Notes: a model not told the origin generated them from the letters alone. A DNA stretch of 64,000 nt from Bacillota bacterium (GCA_023402845.1 JAEYFP010000066.1:5215-69214); one strand, 5' to 3'. Numbered from the stretch's first letter, positions 10,081-64,000 are shown. A program made the numbers and translations.

Positions 10081-10098
10081 ACAGGAGGCTGTTAAGAT

Positions 10099-12000: not shown

Positions 12001-12059
12001 TGTAAAAACTACTTGCTACCGGCAAACAGATGGGTTATCCTAATACAAGGGTGATTATC

Positions 12060-32933: not shown

Positions 32934-32951
32934 TTGATATCTCCCTTGAGG

Positions 32952-33368: not shown

Positions 33369-33401
33369 CAATACATTCCCATGCTTTCCTAAAATCAAAA
33401 G

Positions 33402-34469: not shown

Positions 34470-34532
34470 TGTAGTTTCTCCTTTTTGTGGATTTATGTTT
34501 TTTTCTGCTGCAATTGTGTCTGTTAATGGTTT

Positions 34533-35453
34533 TTATTGGTTTTTGGACAGTTCTTCTGCCACGATGGCAGCGAGCGCAATCGAATTGACCTTCGTCTCAA
34601 ACGTATCGGAGCGGGAGGTCAGGATGACAGGAGCCTTCGTACCTGTCAAAATACAGCCGTTCTTTACCTTTGCAAGGCGGACAATCGCTTTGTATACGAG
34701 GTTGCCCGCATGGATATCCGGAAACAGAAGGATATCTGCATCACCGACGATCTTGCGGTCAAGTGCTCCCTTATGCTTTGCGGCCTCGGGATCGATTGCG
34801 AGATCAAGGGAAAGCGGTCCGTCCACGATGCAGCCGGTAATTTCACCTGCTTCGTTCATCTTTGTAAGCTGATCGGCCTCAACCGTAACTGGCATTTTGG
34901 GGTTGACAACTTCTACGGCTGCAAGAGGAGCAACCTTCGGACACGGAATACCGCACGCCTTGGCAACATCCTTCGTGTAGTTAATGATCGCAACCTTGTC
35001 CTCCAGAGTCGGATACGGCATAAAGGCAACATCCGTTAAAAACAGAAGCCGGTCGATGCCCTCAATTTCAAATACACATACGTGGGACAACGGATTTCCT
35101 GTACGGAGTCCGACTTCTTTATTCAGCACACTCTTTAAAAACATTTTGCTGTCAGTCAGGCCCTTCATGTACATGTCAGCCTTGCCGTCGTGTACGAGCT
35201 TGACCGCAGTCAGGGCCGCCTGCTCCATGTCCTTTTCGTCAATAATCTCATAGCCAGTCAAGTCTATGCTTAAGGAAGCTGCAATGCTTCGGATTTCTGT
35301 CTCATCACCCACAAGGATCGCATCCGCAATGCCGCGTGCTTTCGCTTCGCTGACAGCCTCGAGAATGGGGGCATCCTGCGCCGCTGCAACAGCAACTTTC
35401 TTTTTGCTGCACTCGGACAGCTTCTTAAGTAAATCGTCAAATGTTCTTGTCAT
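34533..35453 (-). CDS. ptb: Phosphate butyryltransferase
   Basis: ~300-aa PTA_PTB family protein (…VAVAAAQDAPILEAV…, …SRSD…). I chose the start ATG at 35453, which follows AGAGG; a GTG at 35462 is also possible. Confidence 0.9.
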   Translation of the reverse strand: MTRTFDDLLKKLSECSKKKVAVAAAQDAPILEAVSEAKARGIADAILVGDETEIRSIAASLSIDLTGYEIIDEKDMEQAALTAVKLVHDGKADMYMKGLTDSKMFLKSVLNKEVGLRTGNPLSHVCVFEIEGIDRLLFLTDVAFMPYPTLEDKVAIINYTKDVAKACGIPCPKVAPLAAVEVVNPKMPVTVEADQLTKMNEAGEITGCIVDGPLSLDLAIDPEAAKHKGALDRKIVGDADILLFPDIHAGNLVYKAIVRLAKVKNGCILTGTKAPVILTSRSDTFETKVNSIALAAIVAEELSKNQ

Positions 35454-35575
35454 CTTACGCACCTCTGATATTGTTATAAATTTTTCCCAAAACGGAATTC
35501 GTTAAAATAATAACACTTTTTAATAGGAAAATCAATTATAACTGCATTATTTACTGATTTTTAACAGAAAGGGAG

Positions 35576-35604
35576 TTGAATCCCTGTTTTAATTCTGTTA
35601 CAAT
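35576..35604 (+). promoter_or_regulatory. Sigma-A promoter of secA
   Basis: TTGAAT (35576-35581), 17-nt spacer, TACAAT (35599-35604). Confidence 0.6.
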
Positions 35605-35660
35605 ACAATTTGAGCTTTTTATAGTGGGAATCTTTCTATTTGAAAACAGGAGCGAAAAAA

Positions 35661-49611: not shown

Positions 49612-50316
49612 ATGAAATTACTAGCAATAGACAGCTCCGGACTTGTGGCGACTGTCGCGGTCATTGAAGAGGAGCAGATGCTTGCCGAGTATACGGTGAA
49701 TTTTAAAAAGACGCATTCTCAGACGCTCGTTCCGATGCTGAATGAGATCACACAGATGATCGAACTGGATTTATCATCGATAGATGCGATTGCGGTGGCA
49801 AAAGGCCCGGGATCCTTTACCGGACTTCGAATCGGTTCGGCGACGGCAAAAGGACTGGGATTGGCTCTTGAGAAACCGATTGTTGCGGTGCCCACGGTCG
49901 ATGCACTCAGCTATAATGTGTGGGGAACCGACATGCTCGTATGTCCGCTGATGGATGCGAGACGGGGGCAGGTATATACCGGGATTTATGCATTTGAAGA
50001 TGGAAAACATCATATTATTAAGGAACAATGTGCGATTGCGGTCGAGGAACTGTGCGAGGAATTGAATATACGTGGAAGAAAGACACTGTTTCTCGGGGAT
50101 GGCGTTCCGGTCTATCGGGAAACACTTGCAGCGCTGCTGACCGTTCCCTATGAATTTGCACCGGCCCATATGGCGAGACAGCGGGCAGGCGCGCTGGGCA
50201 TCCTTGCGATGGATTATCTAAAAGCCGGCAAAACAGAAACGGCTGCAGAACATAAGCCGGATTATCTGCGGCTTTCGCAGGCAGAGAGGGAACGAGCACA
50301 AAAACAGGGGACCTAG
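49612..50316 (+). CDS. tsaB: tRNA t6A37 biosynthesis protein TsaB
   Basis: MKLLAIDSSG..., GPGSFTGLRIG. The position between tsaE and rimI is the conserved arrangement. Confidence 0.88.
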   Translation: MKLLAIDSSGLVATVAVIEEEQMLAEYTVNFKKTHSQTLVPMLNEITQMIELDLSSIDAIAVAKGPGSFTGLRIGSATAKGLGLALEKPIVAVPTVDALSYNVWGTDMLVCPLMDARRGQVYTGIYAFEDGKHHIIKEQCAIAVEELCEELNIRGRKTLFLGDGVPVYRETLAALLTVPYEFAPAHMARQRAGALGILAMDYLKAGKTETAAEHKPDYLRLSQAERERAQKQGT

Positions 50317-50328
50317 CCAGTCTGCTAC

Positions 50329-50356
50329 AGATGCTGACTTTGTCAAACTCTTTGCT
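50329..50356 (+). repeat. Family C repeat, internally deleted copy C3
   Basis: GATGCTGACTTTGTCAA|ACTCTTTGCTC joins the first 17 nt of family C directly to its ACTCTTT end. Confidence 0.5.
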
Positions 50357-50371
50357 CGATAGGAAAATGAA

Positions 50372-50806
50372 ATGGTAAAAATAAGAGAAATGCTGGAGTG
50401 CGATGTCTCGGATGTCGCCAGGATAGAAGAAGAATCGTTTTCTATGCCATGGTCGGAAAGTGCGTTTCGTGAAATGCTTTTAAAGGATCAGATGTCCTAT
50501 CTGGTGGCAGATCTGGGCGGTCAGATTATCGGCGGCGCCGGCATCCGCAATATACTCGGCGACGCGGAGATTACAAACGTCGTTATCAAGGAAGCCTACA
50601 GACGGCACGGTTATGGAAAGCTTTTGCTGAAAACAATTATTGAAAAAGGTTTTCAGATGGGCGCAGAAGCTTTTACGCTTGAAGTACGCAAAAGCAACCT
50701 GCCGGCGATCATGCTGTATAGGAAGCTTGGTTTTACCGAGGAGGGTACCCGTAAGAATTTCTACGAAAGACCGCAGGAGGATGCCTTGATCATGTGGAAG
50801 AGATAG
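50372..50806 (+). CDS. rimI: Ribosomal-protein-alanine N-acetyltransferase
   Basis: 144-aa GNAT with RRHGYGKLLL, in conserved tsaB-rimI linkage. Confidence 0.85.
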   Translation: MVKIREMLECDVSDVARIEEESFSMPWSESAFREMLLKDQMSYLVADLGGQIIGGAGIRNILGDAEITNVVIKEAYRRHGYGKLLLKTIIEKGFQMGAEAFTLEVRKSNLPAIMLYRKLGFTEEGTRKNFYERPQEDALIMWKR

Positions 50807-50889
50807 GCACTCGATGGAGTAATTACCACTATTCAACGGAGCAGCCTGCTTGTATAATAAAAGTGACTGCTTTACAAGGAGGATAGTGT

Positions 50890-51138
50890 ATGAGAAAATA
50901 TAAGGATGATAAAAAAACAGAGCTTGCACATGTATTTTGCAATTGCTGCAAAAAAGAACTTCGCCTTGAAAATGGAATTATCAAAGAAGGCATTTATGCG
51001 GGAAATCAGGAATTCAGTTATTTTTCCAATAAGGACGGAGAACTTCATTTTTTTGATTTGTGCGAGGACTGCTACGATAAAATAACCGCGCAGTTTGAAA
51101 TTCCGATAGAAATTTTTGAAAAGAAGGAGCTGCTTTAA
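50890..51138 (+). CDS. Small zinc-ribbon protein (hypothetical)
   Basis: 82 aa with CNCC...CEDC Cys pairs. RBS AAGGAGGA lies upstream. Confidence 0.55.
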   Translation: MRKYKDDKKTELAHVFCNCCKKELRLENGIIKEGIYAGNQEFSYFSNKDGELHFFDLCEDCYDKITAQFEIPIEIFEKKELL

Positions 51139-51165
51139 ACTGTCCGCGGATAGCGAGGACTTGGA

Positions 51166-52077
51166 ATGCTGGATGTTTGTTTGCTGGGAACCGGCGGCAT
51201 GATGCCCCTGCCTTATCGATGGCTGACATCTCTTATGATGCGCTATCAGGGGGGTAGTATTTTAATTGATTGCGGGGAAGGTACGCAGATTGCCATGAAA
51301 GAAAAAGGCTGGAGTGCCAAACCGATCGATATTATCTGTTTCACCCATTATCATGCGGATCACATCGGCGGCTTGCCGGGCTTGCTGCTGACGATGGGGA
51401 ATGCAGAGAGAACAGAACCCTTGACGATGATAGGTCCCAAGGGTTTGGTTCGCGTTGTGACGGCGCTTCGCACAATCGCGCCGGAGCTTCCGTTTCCGAT
51501 CAATTTTATTGAGTTGTCGGAATCGGAGCAGACGATTTCTTTTGACGGTTTTCGGATAGAAGCCTTCCGTGTGAACCACAATATGGTCTGCTATGGTTAT
51601 AGTATGCTCATCGAGCGCGCCGGTAAGTTCAGCGTCGAGAGTGCAAAAGAGAAAAATGTTCCGCTGCAGCTTTGGAACAGGCTGCAAAAGGGAGAGAGCA
51701 TCGAACATGAGGACAGGCTTTTTACGCCGGATATGGTGTTAGGGCCGGAGAGAAAAGGTATAAAACTGACCTATTGCACCGATTCCAGACCAACGGAGCT
51801 GATTGTAAAAAGTGCGGCGAATGCGGATCTGTTCATTTGCGAAGGCATGTACGGGGAGCCGGATATGGAGCAGAAGGCAAAGGAGCATAAGCATATGACT
51901 TTTTGCGAAGCGGCGGATATGGCAAAACGCGCAAACGTGCGTGAACTTTGGCTGACGCACTACAGTCCGTCTTTAACTTATCCGAAGGAATATGTCGGAC
52001 GTGCACGGGAGATTTTTAAGGCCACACATACGGCGAAGGACGGCAGGACGACGGAACTCGACTTTGAAGAGGAGTAG
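51166..52077 (+). CDS. rnz: Ribonuclease Z
   Basis: MBL-fold motif HYHADHIGG and the N-terminus MLDVCLLGTGGMMP; 303 aa. Confidence 0.9.
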   Translation: MLDVCLLGTGGMMPLPYRWLTSLMMRYQGGSILIDCGEGTQIAMKEKGWSAKPIDIICFTHYHADHIGGLPGLLLTMGNAERTEPLTMIGPKGLVRVVTALRTIAPELPFPINFIELSESEQTISFDGFRIEAFRVNHNMVCYGYSMLIERAGKFSVESAKEKNVPLQLWNRLQKGESIEHEDRLFTPDMVLGPERKGIKLTYCTDSRPTELIVKSAANADLFICEGMYGEPDMEQKAKEHKHMTFCEAADMAKRANVRELWLTHYSPSLTYPKEYVGRAREIFKATHTAKDGRTTELDFEEE

Positions 52078-52121
52078 AATCGGTTTTTGATTCAGGTAAG
52101 AATACAGGAGGATAAAAGGAT

Positions 52122-52700
52122 TTGAAAAAGCAGAGTATCAAAAATTTTATTATATTGCTGATTGTTGCGCTGCTGATCGTTGCCAGCTTTGCTTATCTGT
52201 CCAATAGAGACCGGGTCGCCGATGAAGAAGCGGATCAGATGACGGCGGTGCAGGAAGTGCTGGCAAGAGATTTGTCTTCAAATTATCCGCCTACTCCGAA
52301 GGAAGTGCTGAAGTATTACAGTGAGATCACAAGATGCTTTTACAGTGAAGAATATTCCGGGGAGGAGCTTGTTAAGCTTGCGGAAAAATCAAGACAATTA
52401 TTTGATGAAGAGCTTCAGTCAACTCAGACGGAGGAAGAATATTTAGCAGATCTAAAAAATGAGATTACTATTTTTAAAGATGCGGATCGCTCCATTTCAA
52501 GTTATTCTGTGGCAGGCAGCGCAAACGTGGATTATTATCAATATGAGGGTGACGAGTGGGCAAAGCTTAATTGTATTTATTCCATACGCACGGAGGGAAA
52601 AATCAAACCCACCCAAGAAGAATTTCTGCTGAGAAAGGATGCGGACGGCTATTGGAAAATATTTGGCTGGAAGCTTGCCGGGGAAGAAGCAAATGAATAA
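52122..52700 (+). CDS. Hypothetical membrane-anchored protein
   Basis: TTG start after AGGAGG, an N-terminal TM ([17 protein letters not shown]), then a soluble domain. Its stop overlaps the tsaD start (ATGAATAA). Confidence 0.5.
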
Positions 52701-53715
52701 GGATATACTGATACTTGGGATTGAAAGCTCCTGTGATGAGACGGCAGCCGCGGTCATCAAAAACGGAAGGAGTGTTCTTTCGAATGTCATTTCATCGCAG
52801 ATTGACCTTCATACCTTATATGGCGGTGTCGTACCGGAAATTGCTTCGAGAAAGCATATAGAAAAGATCAATCAGGTAATTGAAGAAGCATTAAAAGAGG
52901 CCGGTATTGCTCTGCACGATTTGGATGCGATAGCAGTCACCTATGGCCCCGGACTTGTCGGTGCCCTGCTTGTCGGTGTTGCGGAGGCAAAGGCGCTCAG
53001 CTTCGCATCGGGAATTCCGCTTATTGGTGTACATCATATCGAAGGCCATATTTGTGCGAATTATATTGAGCATCCGGAGCTTAAGCCGCCGTTTCTGTCG
53101 CTTGTCGTTTCGGGCGGACATACGCATCTTGTCAAGGTGGCGGATTACGGCATTTATGAAATTCTGGGCAGGACAAGAGACGATGCGGCCGGAGAAGCGT
53201 TTGACAAGGTTGCGCGGGCGATTGGTTTAGGGTATCCTGGCGGACCGAAAATAGACCGGGTGTCCAGGGAAGGCAATCCTGAGGCGATCCATTTTCCGAG
53301 GGCAAAAGTTGAAGATAGTTTATATGATTTCAGTTTCAGCGGCTTGAAATCAGCGGTACTCAACTATTTGAACTCTTGCGAGATGAAAGGAGAGCCGATT
53401 GTCGTAAAGGATGTTGCCGCTTCATTTCAAAAGGCGGTGACCGATGTACTTGTCGGGCATTCCATTGCGGCTGTTAAAGCAAACGGTTTTCGCAAATTTG
53501 CGATTGCGGGAGGCGTTGCTTCTAATACTGCACTGCGTGCCGCAATGAAAGAAGCATGCGAAAAAGAGCAGATTACGTTTTATTATCCGTCGCCTGTTTA
53601 CTGTACCGATAATGCTGCCATGATCGGGGTTGCGGGTTATTATGAATTTATAAAAGGTGTCAGAAGCGGACTGGACCTGAATGCGGTGCCAAATTTGAAA
53701 CTGGGTGAACGATAG
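52693..53715 (+). CDS. tsaD: tRNA N6-adenosine threonylcarbamoyltransferase TsaD
   Basis: [21 protein letters not shown] metal site, GGVASN. Confidence 0.93.
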
Positions 53716-53741
53716 TTTTTAGATTGTCGAGGCTTGTCTCT

Positions 53742-54461
53742 ATGATAGAAAAAAAGAAATGTGTTGCCGTCATACTGGCGGGAGGAAAAGGAAAACGAAT
53801 GCATGCGGATACTGCGAAGCAGTATCTTTTGCTTTCCGGAAAACCGGTTTTATACTATTCCCTGAAGGCTTTCGAGGATAGCTTTATAGATGAGATCGTC
53901 CTAGTGACGGGCAAAGGAGAAGTTTCCTACTGCAGGAAGGAAATTGTGGAACGGTATGGTCTGTCCAAGGTAACGATGGTTGTGGAAGGCGGAAGGGAGC
54001 GCTATCATTCCGTCGCCGCAGGACTTTGCGCAATTACAGACTGCGACTATGTGTTTATTCATGACGGGGCGCGCCCGTTTGTGGCAGAGGAAATCCTTAT
54101 GCGCGCTTATGAGGCGGTGCAGCGCTGGGGAACCGCAATTGCGGCAATGCCTGTAAAGGATACGATCAAAATAGCAGATCATGAGGGGTTTGTGAAGGAA
54201 ACACCCAACAGAAGCAGTGTCTGGATGATGCAGACTCCGCAGGTTTTTTCTTTTTCCTCTATTAGGAAAGCATATGAAGCATTGCTTGCAAAGGAAGAGG
54301 AGCTTATGGACAACGGAATACAGATCACGGACGACGCAATGGTCATGGAAACGTTCGGTGGGGGCAGGGTCAAGCTTGTGGAGGGCAGCTATCGAAATAT
54401 CAAAATAACAACGCCGGAGGATCTTGCCATAGCGGAAGCCCTGCTTTTGAAAATACGTTAA
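53742..54461 (+). CDS. ispD: 2-C-methyl-D-erythritol 4-phosphate cytidylyltransferase
   Basis: VILAGGKGKRM, VFIHDGARPF, and TPQVF blocks. Confidence 0.9.
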   Translation: MIEKKKCVAVILAGGKGKRMHADTAKQYLLLSGKPVLYYSLKAFEDSFIDEIVLVTGKGEVSYCRKEIVERYGLSKVTMVVEGGRERYHSVAAGLCAITDCDYVFIHDGARPFVAEEILMRAYEAVQRWGTAIAAMPVKDTIKIADHEGFVKETPNRSSVWMMQTPQVFSFSSIRKAYEALLAKEEELMDNGIQITDDAMVMETFGGGRVKLVEGSYRNIKITTPEDLAIAEALLLKIR

Positions 54462-54511
54462 TTTGTGAATGTCGCCGAGATGCCAGTGAGTGAATAATTA
54501 AGGAGAAGAAA

Positions 54512-54907
54512 ATGCTGCGTGAAGGGATAAAAGGAGAAATAAGAAAAGTTGTAACAAAAGATGATACCGCAGTAGTTTATAAAAGCGGCGAGGCGGAAGT
54601 GCTTGCAACCCCCGCGATGGCAGCGCTGATGGAGGAAACAGCATGGATGAGCATTAAGCCTTATCTTGACGAGAGCGAAAGCAGCGTGGGAACAAGGCTT
54701 TGTATTACACATATCTCACCGACCCCGATTGGGATGAGCGTTGTATGCCAATCGCATCTGGTTACTATGGAAGGGAAAAAATTAGTATTTGAATTAAGGG
54801 TTGAGGATGAAAAGGGTTTGATAGGAGAAGGAACACATGAACGGGTGATTGTTGAAAAGGAAAAGTTTCAAACGAAAGCCAATAAAAAGGCGGAATCTAT
54901 AAAATGA
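54512..54907 (+). CDS. Hotdog-fold thioesterase family protein
   Basis: 131 aa. VLATPAMAALMEETAW...VGTRLCITHISPTPIG matches the pattern of the small FlK-like thioesterases. Confidence 0.7.
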   Translation: MLREGIKGEIRKVVTKDDTAVVYKSGEAEVLATPAMAALMEETAWMSIKPYLDESESSVGTRLCITHISPTPIGMSVVCQSHLVTMEGKKLVFELRVEDEKGLIGEGTHERVIVEKEKFQTKANKKAESIK

Positions 54908-54919
54908 TTCTATTTTGAA

Positions 54920-54947
54920 GGGTAGTGCATGGGCACTGCCTTTTTTA
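54920..54947 (+). terminator. Intrinsic terminator of the thioesterase gene
   Basis: GGTAGTGC-ATGG-GCACTGCC followed by TTTTTT. Confidence 0.7.
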
Positions 54948-54983
54948 TTATATAGAAAATTCCTCCGAATTTTTTATATAATA
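54948..54983 (+). repeat. Family A repeat, partial copy A4 (H3 hairpin only)
   Basis: ATTATATAGAAAATTC-CTCC-GAATTTTTTATATAAT, immediately after the terminator T-run. Confidence 0.65.
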
Positions 54984-55237
54984 AAATGCAAAAATGCAAC
55001 AAATGGATTTTAAAAGCTGAAAAGAATAAAAAATAAAAATAGATACAAGCATAATACACAAAAGAATGCAACAAATGATAAAAAATATCAATACAATTTG
55101 TGCAAAATTGCAGAAATATGCATATAAATCATCTTACTATTGTAAATGTGGCATAAATATGATATATATAATATATAAAATGCAAATATGCATTTAAACT
55201 ATTATATGTTCCAATTATGGAAAAAGGAGATGTTGTT

Positions 55238-56689
55238 ATGGCTTTACTAACGGGCGAAGAGTATATTGAGAGTATTCGCAAGATCAAAATGGAAGTCTAC
55301 ATGTTTGGAGAAAGGATTGAGAATCCGGTTGACGATCCGATTCTCAGACCATCATTAAATTCCGTCAGAATGACGTATGATCTTGCACAGGATCCTCAAT
55401 ATGCGGATCTGATGACGGTAATTTCTCCGTTCACAGGAGAAAGGATTAATCGATTTACACATATTCATCAGAACACGGAAGATTTGAAAAACAAGGTTAA
55501 GATGCAAAGGCTTTGCGGACAAAAGACGGCTGCATGCTTTCAGAGATGTGTTGGTATGGACGCATTTAATGCAGTATTTTCTACGACATTTGAAATTGAT
55601 AAAAAATACGGAACGAGTTATCATGACAATTTCAAAAAATTTATGAATTACTGTGCAACAAATGATCTTACGGTAGACGGGGCAATGACCGATCCCAAAG
55701 GAGATCGCTCCAAGGCTCCGCATGCGCAGGAAGATCCGGATATGTATTTGCGTGTTGTGGAAGTGCGTGAGGACGGTATTGTAGTTCGGGGAGCAAAGGC
55801 CCATCAGACGGGGATGTTAAACTCCCATGAAGTAATTGTAATGCCGACTATCTCAATGGGACCCGATGATAAGGAATATGCGGTTTCCTTTGCGGTTCCG
55901 CTTGATGCAAAGGGACTCTTTATGATAATCGGGCGCCAATCCTGTGATACGAGAAAGCTGGAAGGATCCCAAATGGATGTCGGGAATGCGGAATTTGGAG
56001 GCGTGGAGGCACTTACTATTTTTGATGATGTATTTGTACCGAATGACAGAATTTTTATGAATGGCGAGACAGAATTTGCCGGCATGCTTGTTGAGCGGTT
56101 TGCGGGATATCATCGCCAGTCATACGGCGGCTGCAAAGTTGGAGTTGGTGATGTTCTGATTGGCGCGGCTGCAGTTGCAGCCGAATATAACGGAGCGGCT
56201 AAGGCATCTGCTGTAAAAGATAAGCTTATTGAGATGACACACCTGAATGAAACGTTATACTGCTGCGGTATCGCTTGTTCAACAGAAGGCTATCCTACAG
56301 ACTCGGGCGCGTATATGATTGATTTGCTTCTGGCCAATGTCTGCAAGCAGAACGTAACCAGATTCCCGTATGAGATTGTGCGTCTTGCAGAGGATATTGC
56401 GGGAGGACTTATGGTTACCGCACCTTCCGAGAAGGATCTAAGAGATGAGAAGCTGGGAAAATACATAGACAAATATTTGCGTGGTGTTGCTGAAGTATCC
56501 ACTGAAAATCGTCTGCGTATTCTCAGGCTTATTGAAAACCTTGCATTGGGAACGGCGGCAGTCGGGTACCGGACAGAATCAATGCATGGGGCAGGCTCTC
56601 CGCAGGCGCAAAGGATTATGATTGCAAGGCAGGGCAACCTTGGTCTTAAAAAGGAGCTTGCAAAAAAAATAGCACATATTACGGAATGA
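55238..56689 (+). CDS. abfD: 4-hydroxybutyryl-CoA dehydratase / vinylacetyl-CoA delta-isomerase
   Basis: MALLTGEEYIESIRK... The HpaB-like fold carries an AbfD-type Fe-S ligand pattern: C-X3-C (CFQRC) and H-X6-C (HRQSYGGC). The start at 55238 follows AAAAGGAG. Confidence 0.85.
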   Translation: MALLTGEEYIESIRKIKMEVYMFGERIENPVDDPILRPSLNSVRMTYDLAQDPQYADLMTVISPFTGERINRFTHIHQNTEDLKNKVKMQRLCGQKTAACFQRCVGMDAFNAVFSTTFEIDKKYGTSYHDNFKKFMNYCATNDLTVDGAMTDPKGDRSKAPHAQEDPDMYLRVVEVREDGIVVRGAKAHQTGMLNSHEVIVMPTISMGPDDKEYAVSFAVPLDAKGLFMIIGRQSCDTRKLEGSQMDVGNAEFGGVEALTIFDDVFVPNDRIFMNGETEFAGMLVERFAGYHRQSYGGCKVGVGDVLIGAAAVAAEYNGAAKASAVKDKLIEMTHLNETLYCCGIACSTEGYPTDSGAYMIDLLLANVCKQNVTRFPYEIVRLAEDIAGGLMVTAPSEKDLRDEKLGKYIDKYLRGVAEVSTENRLRILRLIENLALGTAAVGYRTESMHGAGSPQAQRIMIARQGNLGLKKELAKKIAHITE

Positions 56690-56707
56690 TTTTTGGAGGT
56701 TGTCTCT

Positions 56708-57001
56708 ATGACAGAAATAGTTTTAAAAGAAATAGAAGAAGTATTGGACAAAAATGTAAGGCCTAATCTGGCTATGCATGGCGGCAACATCCGGGTGGTC
56801 AGTCTGGAAGAAGAAAAACTTTATTTACGTATGGTCGGGCAATGCAGCGGGTGTCCGTCGGCAAACTTAACAATGGAAAATCTGGTTAATACTGAACTTA
56901 CGGAGGCATTTCCTAAGTTGAAACAGGTGTCTTTGGTAACGGGAGTCAGCGATGCTCTGCTTTTAGAAGCAAGAGAACTGCTGAAGAAGAGAAGAAACTG
57001 A
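56708..57001 (+). CDS. NifU-like Fe-S cluster domain protein
   Basis: LDKNVRPNLAMHGGNIRVVSLEE...GQCSGCPSA is the NifU C-terminal domain CXXC signature. Confidence 0.8.
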   Translation: MTEIVLKEIEEVLDKNVRPNLAMHGGNIRVVSLEEEKLYLRMVGQCSGCPSANLTMENLVNTELTEAFPKLKQVSLVTGVSDALLLEARELLKKRRN

Positions 57002-57092
57002 AAGCCTTTGTTAAGTGCCGCGGCGCTGCTTGCGTTCGGATCGGATCATTATATTAATCAGGCAAAAGACCTGAAAAAAGTGAGGAATCGTT

Positions 57093-58397
57093 ATGAATTG
57101 GAAAGTTGAGTATGCCGATAAGCTCTGTACAGCGGATGAAGCAGTTTCCCATATCAAATCGGGGGATCGTGTTGTTGTGGCACATGCGTGCGGGGAACCG
57201 GTAATTCTTACCGACGCAATGGTTGCCGGCGCCGAGAAATATGATTTTAAGAATATTGAAGTCGTTCATATGGTTGCGATGGGAAAGGCCGGTTACTGCG
57301 CCCCGGAAATGTCAAATCGTTTCAGACATAACGGACTGTTTTTGGGGGGAACATCAAGGGCTGCGGTTGAGGAAGGAAGAGGAGATTTTACTCCTGTATT
57401 CTTTTCTGATATTCCGGAATTGTTTAGAAGCAGCCTGAAAGCGGATGTGATTTTGTTTCAGGTGAGCGAACCGGATGAGCATGGATATTGTTCTTACGGA
57501 ATATCGTGTGATTATACGAAGCCATGTGCGGAAACTGCGAAATACAGAGTGGCACAGATTAATAGAAATATGCCAAGGGTGCTGGGAGATAATTTTATTC
57601 ATATCAGTGAATTGGATTATATTGTGGCTGAGGATACGGATCTGATTCAGCTTGTGCCTCCTCAAATAGGAGAGGTCGAGAGGAAAATAGGAGAAAACAT
57701 CGCTTCGCTTGTCAGGGATGGGGATTGTCTGCAGTTGGGCATTGGTGCGATTCCGGATGCGGTACTGCTGTTTCTGAAAGGAAAGAAGAATCTGGGTATT
57801 CACTCGGAAATGATTTCGGATGGAGTAGTGGAACTGATTAATGCCGGGGTTGTCACCAATAAATGCAAACAAATTGACAAAGGACAAAGCGTAGTGACAT
57901 TTTTGATGGGAACCAAAAAACTATATGACTATGTAAGAGATAATCCAACCGTAAAAATGCTTCCGGTTGATGTAGTAAATGATCCCAGGATCATCTGCCA
58001 AAATGATAATGTGGTTTCCATTAACTCCTGTGTGGAAGTGGACTTGATGGGGCAGGTTTGCTCGGAGTCAATTGGGTTAAAACAAATTTCCGGAATCGGG
58101 GGCCAGGTCGACTTTGTTCGCGGAGCGAATATGTCAAGAGGAGGCCGTACAATCATGGCGATGCCCGCCACGGCCGCAAAGGGTAAGATTTCCAAAATTG
58201 TTCCTTTCCTGACGGAGGGCGCTACGGTAACAACTTCGCGCTGTGACGTAAATTATGTGGTGACAGAATATGGGGTTGCGCAGTTACACGGTAAAACTCT
58301 GAAGGAGCGTGCAAAGCAATTGACGGAAATTGCGGCACCGCAATTCAAGGAAAAATTAATTGAAGAATATGAAAGACGTTTCCGCTGTAACTATTAA
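57093..58397 (+). CDS. 4-hydroxybutyrate CoA-transferase (acetyl-CoA hydrolase/transferase family)
   Basis: 434 aa with LQLGIGAIPDAV, the SE.IGLKQISGIGGQVDF block and a C-terminal transferase domain. It is adjacent to abfD. Confidence 0.82.
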   Translation: MNWKVEYADKLCTADEAVSHIKSGDRVVVAHACGEPVILTDAMVAGAEKYDFKNIEVVHMVAMGKAGYCAPEMSNRFRHNGLFLGGTSRAAVEEGRGDFTPVFFSDIPELFRSSLKADVILFQVSEPDEHGYCSYGISCDYTKPCAETAKYRVAQINRNMPRVLGDNFIHISELDYIVAEDTDLIQLVPPQIGEVERKIGENIASLVRDGDCLQLGIGAIPDAVLLFLKGKKNLGIHSEMISDGVVELINAGVVTNKCKQIDKGQSVVTFLMGTKKLYDYVRDNPTVKMLPVDVVNDPRIICQNDNVVSINSCVEVDLMGQVCSESIGLKQISGIGGQVDFVRGANMSRGGRTIMAMPATAAKGKISKIVPFLTEGATVTTSRCDVNYVVTEYGVAQLHGKTLKERAKQLTEIAAPQFKEKLIEEYERRFRCNY

Positions 58398-58433
58398 AAA
58401 ATGCACCTATGTGCGTGAGAAGGAGGATTTCTA

Positions 58434-59234
58434 ATGAAACTATATATTCTTAATACAGGGTACTTGGAAACAGATAAAAATGCAGTTGTAGCATGCAGTG
58501 TAGTGGGGACAAGAAGCAATCCGAATGTCCAGAATAAATGGATTAAACTGCCGGTTATGGCATTTCTGATTGACACCGGTGATGGTTATATTTTGTATGA
58601 TACAGGAAGCAATCCGGAAGCGATGAACGGTTATTGGCAAAACCTGATGCAGGAAATTTATCCGTTATATCAAAAGGATGAAGAGAGACTTGAAAATCAA
58701 CTTGCGCTGTGCGGCGTAAAACCGGAAGATATTAAAACGGTAGTTCTTTCCCATATGCATTTGGATCATGCGGGAAATCTGCAGTTATTCCCGCACGCAG
58801 ATGTTTATGTTCCGAAGGCTGATTATTTGAATGCATTGGCTGCCGTTCATATGAATCCTGATCCTGAGACACATGGAGGGTATATTAAAGGAGATCTGGA
58901 GAGACCGGCTAAGCAATATCATCTTGTAACAGAAGATTTTGAGTTGGCTCCCGGTGTTGAAATTGTCAATTTGCCGGGACATACGGAGGGACTTCTGGGT
59001 CTGGTGCTTCATTTGGAGGGAGGAACCTTCATTATTCCTCAGGACTGTGTATATACAAGCGAAATTTATGGTCCGCCTGCAAAGGTTTCCGGCTTGTTAT
59101 TCGATTCGGTGAATTTTCTTAAGTCAATTGAAAAGGTTCGCAGCTTGGAAAAGAAATATAATGCAAAGGTCATTTTTGCGCACGATTATGAATTTTTCCA
59201 GACACTTCAACTGGCACCAAAGTTTTACGAATAG
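58434..59234 (+). CDS. MBL-fold lactonase (AiiA / N-acyl homoserine lactonase-like)
   Basis: HMHLDHAGN is an HXHXDH motif. GHTEG is present, as is a D-x-x-Y pair (QDCVYT) like the lactone-binding Asp/Tyr of AiiA, and C-terminal FAHD. Confidence 0.75.
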   Translation: MKLYILNTGYLETDKNAVVACSVVGTRSNPNVQNKWIKLPVMAFLIDTGDGYILYDTGSNPEAMNGYWQNLMQEIYPLYQKDEERLENQLALCGVKPEDIKTVVLSHMHLDHAGNLQLFPHADVYVPKADYLNALAAVHMNPDPETHGGYIKGDLERPAKQYHLVTEDFELAPGVEIVNLPGHTEGLLGLVLHLEGGTFIIPQDCVYTSEIYGPPAKVSGLLFDSVNFLKSIEKVRSLEKKYNAKVIFAHDYEFFQTLQLAPKFYE

Positions 59235-59249
59235 TTTGCAGTGACTTTT

Positions 59250-59288
59250 AATAAGCCGATTTCTTACCGGAAATCGGCTTATTATTTA
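59250..59288. terminator. Bidirectional hairpin terminator between convergent genes
   Basis: AATAAGCCGATTTC (59250-59263) pairs with GAAATCGGCTTATT (59270-59283), with A/T-rich flanks. Confidence 0.7.
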
Positions 59289-59305
59289 ACAGCTGCTGTT
59301 ACTAT

Positions 59306-59734
59306 TTATTTCAGGATAAGTGTGATGGAACCGGAAACTGCTTTTTTTTCGCAGACGGCTGATGAAACACTGAATTCATACAGCTGACTTCCGGGAGAAG
59401 AAATCAAGACCGCAGAGGTGGTTAATGTATCGCCGGGATATACGGCACGAATGAACCGCATCCGCTGAATTTGAAAGAGGAGCGGGAGACGATCTCTGTT
59501 TTCCGGTATTTCCATAAGAAGCAATGCGGCGGCCTGCGCCATGCATTCCGTGAGAAGGACGCCGGGCATGACGGGCTGTGCGGGGAAGTGGCCCCGGAAA
59601 ATATCCCAATCCGGATTGATGAAGGTGTTTGTTGTAATGGAACTCTCCGGGATCAACTCGGATACGGTATCCAGTAAGAGCATCGGTTCGCGGTGAGGCA
59701 GTTTTTTTTTGATTTCTTCTTGATTCATAATCAT
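59306..59734 (-). CDS. FabZ-like 3-hydroxyacyl-carrier-protein dehydratase
   Basis: LPHREPMLLLD and FRGHFPAQPVMPGVLLTECMAQAA are the hotdog dehydratase active-site block. Confidence 0.82.
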   Translation of the reverse strand: MIMNQEEIKKKLPHREPMLLLDTVSELIPESSITTNTFINPDWDIFRGHFPAQPVMPGVLLTECMAQAAALLLMEIPENRDRLPLLFQIQRMRFIRAVYPGDTLTTSAVLISSPGSQLYEFSVSSAVCEKKAVSGSITLILK

Positions 59735-59832
59735 GGGATATTCCTCGCTTTTATCAGATAAAATCAGTATAATATATTTTGATGATTTAGAAAAGAATGA
59801 ATGGACATATTATTAGTTTTGGAGGAAGCGGC

Positions 59833-60081
59833 ATGACAAATTTGGAAAAATACAAAAAAGTTTTAAAGAGTAATTTAGGTGCTTCGGAAGAGGAATTAAA
59901 TGATAATGACCTTGTGTATAACCGGTTTCCCAGATGGGACTCTGTCAGACATTTTGAAATCATAGCAGAGCTGGAAGAGAAATTTAGCGTTATGTTTGAA
60001 ACTCTGGATATTACCACATTCAGCAAATACAGCAAGGGAATTGAAATATTGGAGAAGCTTGGAGTTGATATGAGTCTGTAA
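59833..60081 (+). CDS. Acyl carrier protein-like protein
   Basis: 82 aa from the ATG at 59833 (RBS GGAGGAAG). A WDSV segment with Ser sits at the expected phosphopantetheine position, followed by an amphipathic helix (HFEIIAELEEKF). Confidence 0.7.
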   Translation: MTNLEKYKKVLKSNLGASEEELNDNDLVYNRFPRWDSVRHFEIIAELEEKFSVMFETLDITTFSKYSKGIEILEKLGVDMSL

Positions 60082-60140
60082 GCTTTCGGTTTATATCGTG
60101 AGGAACATAGTTAAAAGAATTAGAAGGGAGGAGAAGCCCC

Positions 60141-61553
60141 ATGATTTTTGCCATGGAAAAAAAACCTTTCGACAAAATTGCCGTATATGAAGATGCGGGC
60201 AATTTTGTTACCTATCATCAGTTATGTGAAGGGGTAACATGGTTTAAGGAGAAGGTCAGAGGCAGGAGCCTGATTTTTTGCTTGTGTCAAAACAGGGTGG
60301 GCTCTCTGATAGGATATCTTGGCGGTGTCGGCGGCGGGCATGTCGTTATAATGCTTGATTCTGAAATAGACACAAGTATGCTGGAAAATTTGTTTGATAG
60401 CTATCATCCGGATTATCTATGGGTTCCTTCCGGTAAAACGGAGCAGCTAAATGCGTTTTCATATGAAATCATATCTATGGCGTTTGGATACAGTCTTCTT
60501 TTAACAAACTGCAAAAGCTGTGACATGCATAAGGATTTGAGCTTGCTGCTGACAACATCGGGAAGTATCGGAAATCCGAAGCTTGTACGTACCAGCAAAA
60601 AAAACATAGAAGCAAATGCGGCTTCTATTGCAAATTATTTAAAATTGGGTGAAGGGGAGCGGCCTATTATGACACTTCCTATGCAATATTCTTATGGACT
60701 ATCCGTGATTAACAGTCATTTGCTGGCCGGTGCGACTCTCCTGATGACGGAAAGGAGCGTGGTGCAGCAGGAATTTTGGGATTTTCTCTCGGAAAGGCAG
60801 GCAACGAGCTTTGCGGGGGTTCCCTATACTTATGAAATGCTGAGAAGAATGAGGATAACAGAGAAAAGACTTCCGAGTGTTACATCCATGACCCAGGCCG
60901 GAGGCAAAATGCCGGAGCTGCTGCAGAAGGAGTTTGGACTGTGGGCAAAGAATCAGGGAATTCGGTTTTATATAATGTACGGACAGACGGAAGCGACGGC
61001 GCGGATGAGCTATCTTCCGTACGAGAAATGCCTTGAAAAGATTGGAAGCATCGGAATTTCGATTCCGGGCGGACGCTTTTTTATCCGGGATGAAAAAGGA
61101 AATAGAGTTGAAGAGCCGGGAGCAGATGGTGAGCTTGTTTACGAAGGAAAAAATGTTGGGTTGGGCTATGCGCAGACAAAAGAGGATTTCAATAGAGGGG
61201 ACGATTGGAAGGGAGTGCTTGCAACAGGAGATATTGCAAGGCAAGACGAGGACGGCTATTATTATATAGTAGGGAGAAAAAAGAGATTTATAAAAATTTA
61301 TGGAGTTCGGGTGGGGTTGGACGAATGTGAACAATTACTGCGAAAGCAGTATGAAGGACGGGAATTTGCATGTACCGGAAAAGATGACCACCTGGCGGTC
61401 TACACAAATGACAGAATCATACCGGAAGCGGTATGCGAAGCTCTGTCGAAAATGCTGCGCATAAGCAAAAGAGCCGTCTCCTGCGATTATATCGATGAAA
61501 TACCAAGAAATGCCGCGGGTAAAATACAATATGGTTTATTAGAAGAAAAGTGA
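60141..61553 (+). CDS. AMP-dependent synthetase/ligase (adenylating enzyme)
   Basis: Core motifs LLLTTSGSIGNPKLV (A3), YGQTEA (A5), TGDIARQDEDGYYYIVGRKKRFIKIYG (A7/A8) and PRNAAGKIQY (A10). Confidence 0.88.
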   Translation: MIFAMEKKPFDKIAVYEDAGNFVTYHQLCEGVTWFKEKVRGRSLIFCLCQNRVGSLIGYLGGVGGGHVVIMLDSEIDTSMLENLFDSYHPDYLWVPSGKTEQLNAFSYEIISMAFGYSLLLTNCKSCDMHKDLSLLLTTSGSIGNPKLVRTSKKNIEANAASIANYLKLGEGERPIMTLPMQYSYGLSVINSHLLAGATLLMTERSVVQQEFWDFLSERQATSFAGVPYTYEMLRRMRITEKRLPSVTSMTQAGGKMPELLQKEFGLWAKNQGIRFYIMYGQTEATARMSYLPYEKCLEKIGSIGISIPGGRFFIRDEKGNRVEEPGADGELVYEGKNVGLGYAQTKEDFNRGDDWKGVLATGDIARQDEDGYYYIVGRKKRFIKIYGVRVGLDECEQLLRKQYEGREFACTGKDDHLAVYTNDRIIPEAVCEALSKMLRISKRAVSCDYIDEIPRNAAGKIQYGLLEEK

Positions 61554-61572
61554 TTTATCTAAGGAGTGAAAA

Positions 61573-62664
61573 ATGTCCCCATTTGATATAAATTTTGACA
61601 GGCCGCCCTATCAGGCGCAGAAAAGAGAAAAAGACGAAACATTAACAAGACAGCTGTTGATGCTGACACAATATCATCGGGAACGCTGTGGGCAATATGA
61701 TGGGATTTTGTCGGCCTATCGATATGATGATGAAAAAGTAACTCATTACAGCGAGCTGCCCTTTTTGCCGTCCGGCCTTTTTAAGCGACTTACCCTGAGC
61801 AGTATTTCAGAAGAAGAAAGCGGGCTGAAGACTGTAACGTCATCCGGAACGACGGGGCAGCAGGTTTCAAAAATTGTTCTGGACGGAGAAACAAGAACCT
61901 TGCAGCAGCGGGCGCTTGTTTCGATAGGCAATGATTTTATAGGAAAACAGCGTATTCCCATGCTTGTCATCGACTGTGAAAAAACCGCAAAGGGGAAGAC
62001 CCATTTTTCGGCAAGAACCTCCGCCGTGCTTGGCTTTTCCCTGTTTGGGAAAAACAGAAGCTTTGCACTGGATGATCGGATGGAATTGGATATTCCCGCT
62101 ATAGAGAGATTTGTAGAATTGTATGGAAGAGAAAGGTTTCTGATTTTCGGCTTTACTTATTTGATATGGAGCTGCGTCTGTCTTGAACTGGAAACAAGAG
62201 GATTGCATATGGATCTGTCCAATGCAATCCTGATTCATGGCGGGGGCTGGAAGAAATTGCAGGCGGAAAATATTACAAGAGAGCAATTTAGGGAGAAACT
62301 ATACAAAACCTGTAATATTACGCGCGTGCATGATTATTATGGGATGGCGGAGCAGACGGGAAGCATTTTCATGGAATGTGAATATGGGCATATGCACTGC
62401 TCGGATTATTCGGGAGTTCTGCTGCGCAGGGCAAAAGATTTTACTTTATGCGAAAAAGGAGAAGCGGGTTTAATCCAGACTCTCTCGGTGCTGCCGTTAA
62501 GCTATCCCGGTCATAATATTCTGACAGAGGACGAGGGTGTTTTGCTTGGAGAGGATGATTGTAAGTGCGGAAGAAAAGGAGTCTATTTCAAGGTGCTTGG
62601 AAGAACTCGGCATGCAGAAATCAGGGGGTGCAGTGATACCTATGAAGAATCTGGAGAAAATTGA
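61573..62664 (+). CDS. LuxE-like acyl-protein synthetase
   Basis: 363 aa. LPFLPSGLFKRL and TSSGTTGQQVSKIVLD blocks plus C-terminal CxCG resemble the LuxE family as I recall it. Confidence 0.7.
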   Translation: MSPFDINFDRPPYQAQKREKDETLTRQLLMLTQYHRERCGQYDGILSAYRYDDEKVTHYSELPFLPSGLFKRLTLSSISEEESGLKTVTSSGTTGQQVSKIVLDGETRTLQQRALVSIGNDFIGKQRIPMLVIDCEKTAKGKTHFSARTSAVLGFSLFGKNRSFALDDRMELDIPAIERFVELYGRERFLIFGFTYLIWSCVCLELETRGLHMDLSNAILIHGGGWKKLQAENITREQFREKLYKTCNITRVHDYYGMAEQTGSIFMECEYGHMHCSDYSGVLLRRAKDFTLCEKGEAGLIQTLSVLPLSYPGHNILTEDEGVLLGEDDCKCGRKGVYFKVLGRTRHAEIRGCSDTYEESGEN

Positions 62665-63841
62665 ATTTATTTTTGGAAACGAAGAAATACTTTACAAGAT
62701 GGCCGAACAAAAACCGATGAAGCCGTTTTCGGATGAAGCACTTCTGTTTTTGGACAGTTTATCTGCAAGGATTCGGAGCTGTCTCGGGACAAAGGAAATG
62801 GCAGATGTCGCTGCTTTTGGATTTTGGTGCAGAAGGGCGGGAGTGATACAGAAAAAAGAGAGCTATGAAAGGCATATTGATTACAGGTTGGGAAGGGGAA
62901 TCGCACTTCATTTTGTTCCATCCAACCTGCCGGTGCTGTTCGCTTTTAGCATGGCTGCTTCTATATTGGCGGGCAATTGTGTAATTATGAGAATTCCTTC
63001 AAGGCGAAGCAGACAGGCGGAGGCCATTCTTCATTGTCTGGAGGATGTGCTGCTTGCGCTTCCCGAATGGTCCTTAAGAATCGTTTTTCTTAGATATGGG
63101 CATGAGAAGGCAATTACGGACATGTTGTCAGGGATGTGTGATATTCGGGTGATTTTGGGAGGGGATGCCTCGGTTACGGAGATAAGGAAATCGGCATTGC
63201 CGCCAAGAGCCGTTGAACTGACATTTGCCAATCGGAGTTCCGCTGCGGTTATAAAGGCATCGGAGGTCATAAAGAATTTGGATTTGGCGGATCTGTCAAG
63301 GAAATTTTATAATGATACTTATTTAAATGATCAGAATGCCTGTTCCTCTCCCGGGATTATTTACTGGCTGGGCACAAAAGGGGAGATTGAGTCCGCAAAG
63401 GAAATGTTTTGGAATGCGGTTTATGAATACGGCAGTAAAAGATATGAGGTAACACCTGTTCTGGCGATTAAAAAGTGGGAGCAGGCGGCTTGTATCGGAG
63501 CGACTGTCTGCAATACACAAATTTTTAATAATGAAAATCTGATTGTCAGAGCGGATGTTCCGATGTTGTCTGAAGAAGATTGGAATTATTTATCGCCGGG
63601 TGGCTTTTTTATAGAATCGGGAGGAGAAAGTTTGCAGGGTATTCTGCCGGTTTTGACTGAGAGGTGCCAGACCGTTACCTGCTATGGAATCTCCTGCTTG
63701 GAAATCGGAGGATTTTTTGCGGAAAATCGGGTAAGCGGAGCAGATCGTATTGTGGAATTCGGGCATGCACTGGATTTCTCTTTAATTTGGGATGGTTTTG
63801 ATCTGATCGCTTCAATGAGCAGGATGATCTCCTTTATGTGA
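62642..63841 (+). CDS. LuxC-like acyl-CoA (acyl-protein) reductase
   Basis: ~400 aa from the ATG at 62642. HFVPSNLPVLFAFSMAASILAGNCVIMRIPS and DQNACSSPG blocks resemble the LuxC family. It overlaps the luxE-like stop by 23 nt. Confidence 0.68.
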   Translation: MKNLEKIEFIFGNEEILYKMAEQKPMKPFSDEALLFLDSLSARIRSCLGTKEMADVAAFGFWCRRAGVIQKKESYERHIDYRLGRGIALHFVPSNLPVLFAFSMAASILAGNCVIMRIPSRRSRQAEAILHCLEDVLLALPEWSLRIVFLRYGHEKAITDMLSGMCDIRVILGGDASVTEIRKSALPPRAVELTFANRSSAAVIKASEVIKNLDLADLSRKFYNDTYLNDQNACSSPGIIYWLGTKGEIESAKEMFWNAVYEYGSKRYEVTPVLAIKKWEQAACIGATVCNTQIFNNENLIVRADVPMLSEEDWNYLSPGGFFIESGGESLQGILPVLTERCQTVTCYGISCLEIGGFFAENRVSGADRIVEFGHALDFSLIWDGFDLIASMSRMISFM

Positions 63842-63882
63842 CACGGTGGTGCTTTGAATTTCATGATAGGCGGAGACGATTA

Positions 63883-64000
63883 TGGAAAATATAACGATAG
63901 GAAATGATAGCTGCCTGTATTATAAAATAGAAGGGAATGGGCCGTTGTTATTATTGATCCATGGAGTGGCTTGTGACAGTAATTATTTTGACAGTGCGGT
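63883..64000 (+). CDS. Alpha/beta hydrolase (5' part only, runs off the window)
   Basis: MENITIGNDSCLYYKIEGNGPLLLLIHGVACDSNYF is a typical alpha/beta-hydrolase N-terminus with an HG oxyanion motif. A GGAG RBS lies upstream. Confidence 0.6.

Follow-up and report, generated by a model that had tools for sequence, protein, structure and literature searches.

LuxC and LuxE are textbook bioluminescence enzymes, and genes of both families lie at the right end (59306-64000) of a 64,000-nucleotide stretch of DNA from a Bacillota bacterium (GCA_023402845.1, JAEYFP010000066.1:5215-69214), which was analysed as a whole and is called the window here. The first-pass annotation, made from the sequence alone, had described these genes as part of a cassette with an acyl carrier protein (ACP), an adenylating enzyme, a FabZ-like dehydratase and an alpha/beta hydrolase, without luciferase and in an apparent anaerobe. 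We found that this six-gene cassette forms the right-hand half of a conserved unit with about ten genes, the order of which is not frozen. The unit consists of abfD, nifU, abfT, an optional lactonase gene, the FabZ, ACP and ligase genes, luxE, luxC, the alpha/beta hydrolase gene and a gene for a PAS/sigma-54 activator. Its parts inside the window are listed in Table 1. The coordinates given earlier stood for all genes, except that the ATG of the hydrolase gene is at 63882 and not at 63883. The 23-nt overlap stood as well: in the list of open reading frames, the luxC ATG at 62642 precedes the luxE end by that distance. This LuxC start is shared with the 399-amino-acid NCBI call in a metagenome-assembled genome (MAG) of Lachnospiraceae that is 94% identical and is the closest genome record to the locus; the ENA gene call begins 30 nt earlier.

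Table 1. Genes and sequence features of the locus, with positions in the window
Feature	Position	Strand	Basis
FabZ-type (R)-3-hydroxyacyl-ACP dehydratase, 142 aa	59306-59734	-	FabA-like Pfam, FabZ equivalog model
Dedicated acyl carrier protein, 82 aa, phosphopantetheine serine in W-D-S	59833-60081	+	21-sequence profile
Adenylate-forming ligase, presumed acid-ACP ligase, 470 aa	60141-61553	+	AMP-binding Pfam
LuxE-family acyl-protein synthetase, 363 aa	61573-62664	+	PF04443; alignment to 7XC6 chain E
LuxC-family acyl-thioester reductase	62642-63841	+	PF05893; 24-sequence profile to 7XC6 chain A
Alpha/beta hydrolase, N-terminus, cut by the window edge (282 aa in full)	63882-64000	+	ENA contig gene
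4-Hydroxybutyryl-CoA dehydratase / vinylacetyl-CoA isomerase (AbfD)	55238-56689	+	1U8V match; HpaB_N and HpaB domains
NifU-like Fe-S protein after abfD	56693-57001	+	PF01106, 79.5 bits
4-Hydroxybutyrate CoA-transferase (AbfT/Cat2 type)	57093-58397	+	3EH7 and 3GK7 matches
Metallo-beta-lactamase-fold lactonase-like protein, accessory	58434-59234	+	AhlS-family lactonase model
Likely bidirectional terminator hairpin	59249-59284		16-bp perfect stem, -29.1 kcal/mol
Three TGCA-N4-TGCA palindromes	54987-54998, 55101-55112, 55181-55192		Intergenic, 5' of abfD

The LuxE and LuxC calls were to fall if profile searches failed to assign the two families, but both proteins scored above the Pfam cut-offs. 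LuxE matched PF04443 with 153.5 bits (cut-off 24.9) over residues 5-358 of 363, and LuxC matched PF05893 with 73 bits (cut-off 21) over residues 81-285 only. In addition, LuxE aligned over its full length with chain E of the structure 7XC6, and its Cys353 (RGCSD) paired with Cys364 (KGCSL), which carries the acyl thioester in Photobacterium phosphoreum LuxE (PMC12041015). A search of the PDB with the single LuxC sequence returned no match. A profile of 24 cassette LuxC proteins gave the LuxC of 7XC6 (chain A) as its sole PDB match (5e-15), and the invariant Cys234 in DQNACSSP paired with the cysteine of DQQAC in that protein. The NCBIfam equivalogs of the long-chain enzymes were not reached (LuxE 61 vs 550 bits, NF052244; LuxC 32.9 vs 750 bits, NF052251). 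Because these scores are far under the cut-offs, the cassette LuxE and LuxC are to be classed, on their profile matches, as members of the Lux families and not as orthologues of the long-chain system.

The three remaining enzymes and carriers of the core were also as previously called. As a single sequence, the ACP had no Pfam or NCBIfam match. The PDB matches of a profile of 21 homologues were all acyl carrier proteins (best 2LML, 2e-7), and the profile has W35-D36-S37 invariant at the phosphopantetheine position. The ligase scored 124.5 bits against the Pfam AMP-binding family, and all the core adenylation motifs were seen in its translation (TSGSIGNPK, YGQTE, TGD, GRKKRFIK and a C-terminal GK). 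Its nearest solved relatives were oxalate-CoA ligase (6e-23), MenE and malonyl-CoA synthetase, whose substrates (oxalate, o-succinylbenzoate and malonate) give a weak hint that the ligase may use a short dicarboxylate. The FabZ-like protein reached 66.6 bits against the FabA-like Pfam family and 111.8 bits against the NCBIfam FabZ equivalog, 1.2 under the cut-off of 113, and its translation contains the FabZ-type His/Glu motif GHFP...E..AQ as GHFPAQPVMPGVL...ECMAQ. The cispentacin enzymes AmcH and AmcE, which were NCBIfam matches of the ligase and the FabZ-like protein, were set aside; they scored far under the cut-offs and below the generic matches, and a 2-oxoglutarate substrate is not inferred from them. 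As far as family membership and motifs can tell, the catalytic set is intact, with both thioester cysteines, the serine of the ACP, the adenylation motifs and the His/Glu motif of FabZ in place.

A 72-kb ENA contig (L001) encodes an identical LuxE and shows the genes past the window edge. The full hydrolase gene (L001 12310-13158) encodes 282 amino acids with a GCSAG nucleophile elbow. The protein matched Abhydrolase_1, Abhydrolase_6 and Hydrolase_4 in Pfam; its best models were of the enol-lactonase, RutD and BioH types, all far under their cut-offs, and the LuxD family was not matched. A gene for a PAS/sigma-54 activator of 480 amino acids follows at L001 13260-14702, outside the window. After it, at L001 14702-15425, come two sequences resembling tRNAs and then the 5' part of a 16S rRNA gene, which puts the locus right beside an rRNA operon. 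The earlier suggestion that tailoring or transfer genes might follow past the right edge was not borne out, since the hydrolase, the activator, the tRNAs and the 16S rRNA come in turn and the gene cluster thus ends at the activator. No glycosyltransferase, aminotransferase or exporter gene was found 3' of the cassette on the ENA contig.

On the left side, the cassette adjoins genes of 4-hydroxybutyrate metabolism, which the first-pass annotation had overlooked. AbfD matched C. aminobutyricum AbfD (PDB 1U8V) over its full length (799 bits, E=1e-239), and AbfT matched the solved 4-hydroxybutyrate CoA-transferases 3EH7 (539 bits) and 3GK7 (490 bits). An oxygen-sensitive-type AbfD next to the cassette and a Lachnospiraceae MAG as the nearest record fit the view that the host is an anaerobe. 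The lactonase-like protein scored 205 bits against an AhlS-family model (cut-off 475) and 113 bits against 4-pyridoxolactonase. Between the convergent lactonase and FabZ genes lies the perfect hairpin of Table 1 (z = -7.7 relative to shuffled sequences). No supplier of 4-hydroxybutyrate, that is, 4HbD with SucD or a 4-aminobutyrate (GABA) transaminase, was found at 50000-64000 or on the rest of the contig. A FlK/4HBT-like hot-dog thioesterase gene at 54512-54907 is located 5' of abfD and recurs in L035 and L008. It is a doubtful member of the unit and was left out, because a strong terminator with a 12-bp stem (54917-54944) separates it from abfD.

To place the unit among its relatives, we compared the window locus (L001) with six further loci, from divergent Clostridia genomes, in which the cassette is linked to abfD: L002 (a 3.3-Mb genome), L003 (Anaeromicropila populeti), L020 (Candidatus Enterocloster faecavium), L035, L036 and L037. 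All seven loci hold AbfD, NifU, AbfT, a hot-dog dehydratase, ACP, ligase, LuxE and LuxC. The hydrolase is present in five of the seven and the PAS/sigma-54 activator in six, and the lactonase-like gene occurs in three to four of them, L035 and L036 included; L008 has a partial match. The LuxE proteins of the six relatives are 47-64% identical to that of the window. The LuxE proteins linked to abfD all group in a single clade of a neighbour-joining tree, apart from the LuxE proteins of cassettes of the glycan type (see below). The luciferase families were absent from the precomputed Pfam tables of the seven loci (8-10 kb on each side), in line with the earlier statement that the cassette comes without luciferase.

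The arrangement of the unit varies among these loci. The activator gene is 5' of the set in L002 and L003 and 3' of it in the others, FabZ is relocated behind the activator in L037, and the lactonase gene is placed before abfD in L036. In L020, LuxE and LuxC are fused in that order into one protein of 759 amino acids (9983-12262), a MaoC-type hydratase takes the place of FabZ, and the ligase gene is 3' of LuxC. Here the cassette stands between abfD/abfT/nifU/MaoC and the thiolase-crotonase-Hbd genes (thl-crt-hbd), beside which an acetolactate-synthase-like thiamine pyrophosphate enzyme was observed. The fusion in L020 and the overlap of luxE and luxC in the window are compatible with a LuxE-LuxC complex. 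Only L036 has an iron-type alcohol dehydrogenase (Fe-ADH) and a non-acylating aldehyde dehydrogenase; the latter was rejected as a substitute for SucD because it is not a CoA-acylating enzyme of the SucD type. Several other genes were observed in one or two loci. L036 has a PaaI-like thioesterase gene after the activator, L002 (13119-15065) and L037 (11101-13182) have a gene for an RCC1/WD40-like repeat protein of about 650-690 amino acids after the hydrolase, and the same two loci encode a protein of 451-467 amino acids with no family match between abfT and the ACP/FabZ genes.

The gene content of the unit corresponds to a regulon already predicted for clostridia. Nie et al. reconstructed sigma-54 regulons in Clostridiales in 2019 (BMC Genomics 20:565, PMC6615313). 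Their predicted XanR regulon of Clostridium comprises abfD-nifU-(hypothetical gene)-ach, extended by golB or by cat1-sucD-4hbD, together with acp-caiC-luxEC, and it was loosely classed under 'Butyrate/Butanol synthesis'. Their Table S3 lists, for C. kluyveri and C. tyrobutyricum, sigma-54 promoters and GTTGCA-N4-TGCAAC activator sites preceding each of the two operons, of which the one with abfD runs on into cat1-sucD-4hbD in C. kluyveri. The genes abfD-nifU-ach and acp-caiC-luxEC are all found in our locus, adjoining the PAS/sigma-54 activator gene on the same contig.

We then scanned for the corresponding sites. The exact pattern TGCAANNNTGCA had four strand matches at three sites in the 64-kb window, compared with 1.27 expected, and all three sites fall in the one intergenic region 5' of abfD and fit the XanR motif. 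In a relaxed scan, an XanR-like motif was also found 5' of abfD in L002, L003, L035 and L037 and 5' of the activator gene in L001 (one site), L035 and L037, and L037 has a perfect XanR-like site 5' of the ACP gene. For sigma-54 promoters, we searched TTGGCAT-N5-TTGCT with up to two mismatches, and the matches over the whole window were no commoner than in shuffled sequences. The only candidates in the window were TGGCATAAATATGATA at 55148, with a poor -12 element, and TGGGATATTCCTCGCT at 59734. Elements of this kind, TGGCA-like at -24 with a degenerate -12, were observed at 55148-55163 and 59734-59749 of the window and in the FabZ/ACP intergenic regions of L002 and L003, in positions comparable to the reported Clostridium sigma-54 promoters. 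Since the promoter scans did no better than shuffles, we do not claim sigma-54 dependence for the window and state just the adjacent activator and the sites. Taken together, the locus is probably the counterpart, in Lachnospiraceae, of the XanR regulon predicted for clostridia, and is probably co-regulated.

The core of ACP, ligase, LuxE and LuxC is not confined to abfD. We also found it in other Clostridia, Bacteroidota, Lentisphaeria, SAR86, Pelagibacteraceae, Alteromonas, Campylobacterota, Brevibacillus and Zixibacteria, where the LuxE proteins of these non-abfD cassettes are 40-53% identical to the window LuxE. Where Pfam data existed, the neighbours of the glycan-type cassettes included PglD-like proteins, short-chain dehydrogenases/reductases (SDR), split transketolases, GT2, ManC, Acyl_transf_3, thioesterases and a second LuxE-LuxC pair. 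The ligase of the window is mostly 40-49% identical to those of glycan-type cassettes, with 46-49% identity to most of them in Clostridia, Bacteroidota, Lentisphaeria and Zixibacteria. This level of identity across both cassette types suggests that the same or a similar common metabolite is probably used. In four Pelagibacteraceae (SAR11) loci (L021, L028, L029 and L031), a FabZ-like gene lies directly 3' of LuxC and the ACP gene is several kb off, so that outside Clostridia, too, the cassette is repeatedly accompanied by the dehydratase. Two loci of the glycan type (L005 179-12299 and L038 5002-16735) contain two LuxE-LuxC pairs, each beside an SDR and a split transketolase. These repeats look like a module that reduces an acid to an aldehyde and then adds a C2 unit.

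4-Hydroxybutanoyl is an N-acyl group of nonulosonic acids, and we take RfbN of Vibrio cholerae to be LuxC/LuxE-like. The V. cholerae O1 rfb region had been brought up earlier as a parallel. It was a fair lead, given that 2,4-dihydroxybutanoate is reported to be activated by RfbL, with CoA or the carrier RfbK as acceptor (PMC12208996), and that the group II polar-flagellin glycosylation islands of Aeromonas contain ACP, 3-oxoacyl-ACP reductase, AMP-dependent synthetase, luxE and luxC genes (PMC7874193), but it describes a sister type of the cassette. The Shewanella sfmABCDE flagellin-modification operon, which we had considered as a LuxCE cassette, was dropped because its paper shows otherwise.

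Given this context, we propose that the cassette carries out an ACP-dependent reduction of a short carboxylic acid, driven by ATP and NAD(P)H, at the 4-hydroxybutyrate/crotonyl-CoA node, and is not a lipid, luciferase or glycan system. We put the probability of this reading at roughly 0.55. The chain length is probably short, because the host is an anaerobe and the neighbouring enzymes act on C4 acids. The chemistry suggested in the first-pass annotation (activation on a carrier, possible dehydration and reduction to an aldehyde) is still the best reading, while the lipid or glycan product that it had allowed for is unlikely here, because of the AbfD/NifU/AbfT genes and the regulator. In the proposed sequence, the AMP-ligase would charge the dedicated ACP with a short carboxylic acid of about C4, and the FabZ or MaoC enzyme would interconvert the tethered 2-enoyl and (R)-3-hydroxyacyl thioesters. 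LuxE would adenylate a free carboxyl, acylate itself at the C-terminal Cys353 and hand the acyl group to Cys234 of LuxC, which would reduce the thioester to the aldehyde with NAD(P)H. The alpha/beta hydrolase may release the product or edit the ACP.

The presence of two adenylating enzymes implies either separate treatment of the two carboxyl ends of a dicarboxylate or a sequence in which an acid is loaded, modified, released and activated again. In the former case, one end would be held on the ACP while the other is reduced, as proposed for the conversion of malate to 2,4-dihydroxybutanoyl in V. cholerae. In the latter, the order of events would be as with LuxD and then LuxE, and the thioesterase gene found between the ligase and LuxE genes in L005 fits this option. 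Our preferred version is that a C4 dicarboxylate such as succinate might be brought to the level of 4-oxo- or 4-hydroxybutyrate, and that AbfT and AbfD would then lead to crotonyl-CoA and butyrate. This version is preferred because all the conserved partners are C4 enzymes, because a C4 acid with a 4-hydroxy group is also what V. cholerae makes, and because 4-hydroxybutanoyl occurs on nonulosonic acids. A broader form of it seems rather unlikely: an unrecognised carrier-protein route that uses ATP and NAD(P)H to bring a C4 dicarboxylate, succinate or a different one, to the 4-oxo- or 4-hydroxybutyrate level would let gut Lachnospiraceae that lack Cat1/SucD/4HbD make butyrate from cross-fed succinate, and the same chemistry would serve the 4-hydroxy-acyl groups of surface sugars.

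Several observations weigh against the proposed role at the 4-hydroxybutyrate node. With succinate as the substrate there is no evident task for FabZ, activation of the acid from ATP to AMP is costly for a fermentation route, and a gene for an aldehyde-to-alcohol reductase is absent from the window locus, Fe-ADH being found in L036 only. Moreover, cat1-sucD-4hbD belongs to the same regulon in C. kluyveri, so the cassette is no simple replacement for those genes. On the regulatory side, the 98-bp intergenic region between FabZ and ACP in the window has no XanR-like site, and the scans of the Lachnospiraceae loci brought up no convincing -24/-12 promoter for abfD or the ACP gene. Finally, co-localisation inside one clade is equally expected from shared descent alone.

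Some of these points bear on a different explanation, which we consider unlikely on balance. The cassette may make an unrelated small aldehyde or alcohol, such as a signal or a solvent (for example, butanal or butanol from butyrate), and have only the regulator or the neighbourhood in common with abfD/abfT, with no exchange of intermediates. An aldehyde is indeed the end point of LuxE/LuxC chemistry, and butanol appears in the name of the category under which the regulon was loosely filed (Nie et al., PMC6615313). The terminator and the oppositely oriented FabZ gene split two operons in the window, and the second of these has no XanR-like site in front of its ACP gene. However, the linkage has survived several rearrangements across Clostridiaceae and Lachnospiraceae, a common regulator normally marks a common pathway, and in L020 the cassette is enclosed between abfD/abfT and thl-crt-hbd.

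It is improbable that the cassette serves the acylation of a glycan or the cell surface, as in V. cholerae O1 rfbKLMNO and the Aeromonas islands, by providing a hydroxy-acyl-ACP donor for an amino sugar next to an abfD that is there by accident. The core is present in many other phyla and in the published contexts cited above (PMC7874193, PMC12208996), and LuxE is 40-53% identical to cassettes that lie among glycosyltransferases, SDRs, transketolases, PglD-like proteins and Acyl_transf_3 (L005-7, L038). Nevertheless, glycosyltransferase and acyltransferase genes are absent within 8-10 kb in all seven loci linked to abfD, with the one exception of an unrelated Acyl_transf_3 at the outermost end of L035; tsaD/ispD and tRNA/rRNA genes delimit the window locus on its two sides; and the abfD-linked LuxE proteins are a clade of their own in loci that lack the SDR or alcohol dehydrogenase (ADH) of the glycan type. 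A true lux-like fatty acid reductase that supplies the membrane lipids of an anaerobe with fatty aldehydes or alcohols of long chain length is very improbable: both Pfam families are matched, both catalytic cysteines are conserved and the adjacent alpha/beta hydrolase recalls LuxD, but the equivalog scores are low (61 vs 550 and 33 vs 750 bits), the hydrolase is outside the LuxD family, a private ACP and ligase would be needless if the acyl-ACP of fatty acid synthesis were the source, and the conserved partners are C4 enzymes.

Two observations concern the window as a whole. A PLSDB megablast with 59306-64000 gave no match, and a plasmid origin is thus unsupported. The GC skew is about +0.12 to +0.29 over nearly the whole window and falls to about -0.11 to 0 at 32001-36000, which is probably due to a block of genes on the opposite strand.

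As for novelty, the gene set and its pairing with abfD were already listed in 2019 as the predicted XanR regulon (PMC6615313), and the pairing has therefore been catalogued computationally; the Lachnospiraceae version with FabZ, hydrolase and lactonase is an addition. In the literature that could be searched, an experiment on the cassette was not found: papers on the C. kluyveri locus tags CKL_3020 and CKL_3026-3030 and on LuxE/LuxC with tetronate, perosamine or 4-hydroxybutyrate yielded no functional study. What the comparison brings out is a distinct LuxE/LuxC clade that is fixed beside the last two enzymes from 4-hydroxybutyrate to butyrate in strict anaerobes, some relatives of which turn up in metagenome assemblies many times over. 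Should the cassette supply or draw on the 4-hydroxybutyrate node, it would add an extra step to clostridial butyrate metabolism. For the four-gene cassette, which ranges over many phyla from SAR11 and SAR86 to Bacteroidota and Aeromonas, this would also be the first clue to function. With Anaeromicropila populeti, C. kluyveri and C. tyrobutyricum as cultured carriers, the question is directly testable.

The locus can be set against five known systems. The lux fatty acid reductase (LuxC-LuxE(-LuxD), seen by cryo-electron microscopy in 7XC6) has homologous LuxE and LuxC proteins, and both thioester cysteines are kept; unlike it, the window locus has neither luciferase nor a LuxD-family transferase and has its own ACP, ligase and dehydratase. 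The tail pathway of the tambjamine BE-18591 offers another likeness. In TabQ/TabJ/TabE, an enzyme of the LuxC cluster reduces acyl-ACP in vitro, with an ACP and an editing thioesterase (bioRxiv 10.1101/2025.08.11.669332). The two systems share a discrete ACP, a hydrolytic enzyme (hydrolase or thioesterase) and a reductase of the LuxC cluster that leads from thioester to aldehyde. The Tab reduction differs in that it needs no ATP and no LuxE; it works on a C12 chain, has a transaminase as its next step and belongs to an actinomycete secondary-metabolite cluster.

Among the glycan cassettes, V. cholerae O1 rfbKLMNO (2,4-dihydroxybutanoyl/tetronate) and the Aeromonas islands have the same four-gene core, and the V. 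cholerae cassette yields a 4-hydroxy C4 acid. In contrast to the V. cholerae and Aeromonas cassettes, the window locus is without glycosyltransferase, acyltransferase, SDR and ADH, its LuxE falls into a separate clade, and it is coupled instead to AbfD/AbfT and a sigma-54 activator. The Clostridium XanR regulon, a computational prediction as published, agrees with the locus in gene content, in the adjacent PAS/sigma-54 activator and in the TGCA-N4-TGCA motif 5' of abfD and of the activator gene. The differences are the Lachnospiraceae host, the inclusion of the FabZ-type dehydratase, the alpha/beta hydrolase and the metallo-beta-lactamase-fold lactonase in the unit, and the lack in the window of a canonical TTGGCAT-N5-TTGCT promoter and of an activator site at the ACP gene. 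Finally, AbfD and AbfT are close orthologues of the enzymes of the pathway from 4-aminobutyrate or succinate to butyrate in C. aminobutyricum and C. kluyveri, and in the position of SucD, 4HbD and GABA transaminase, which are not in the window locus, stands the Lux cassette.

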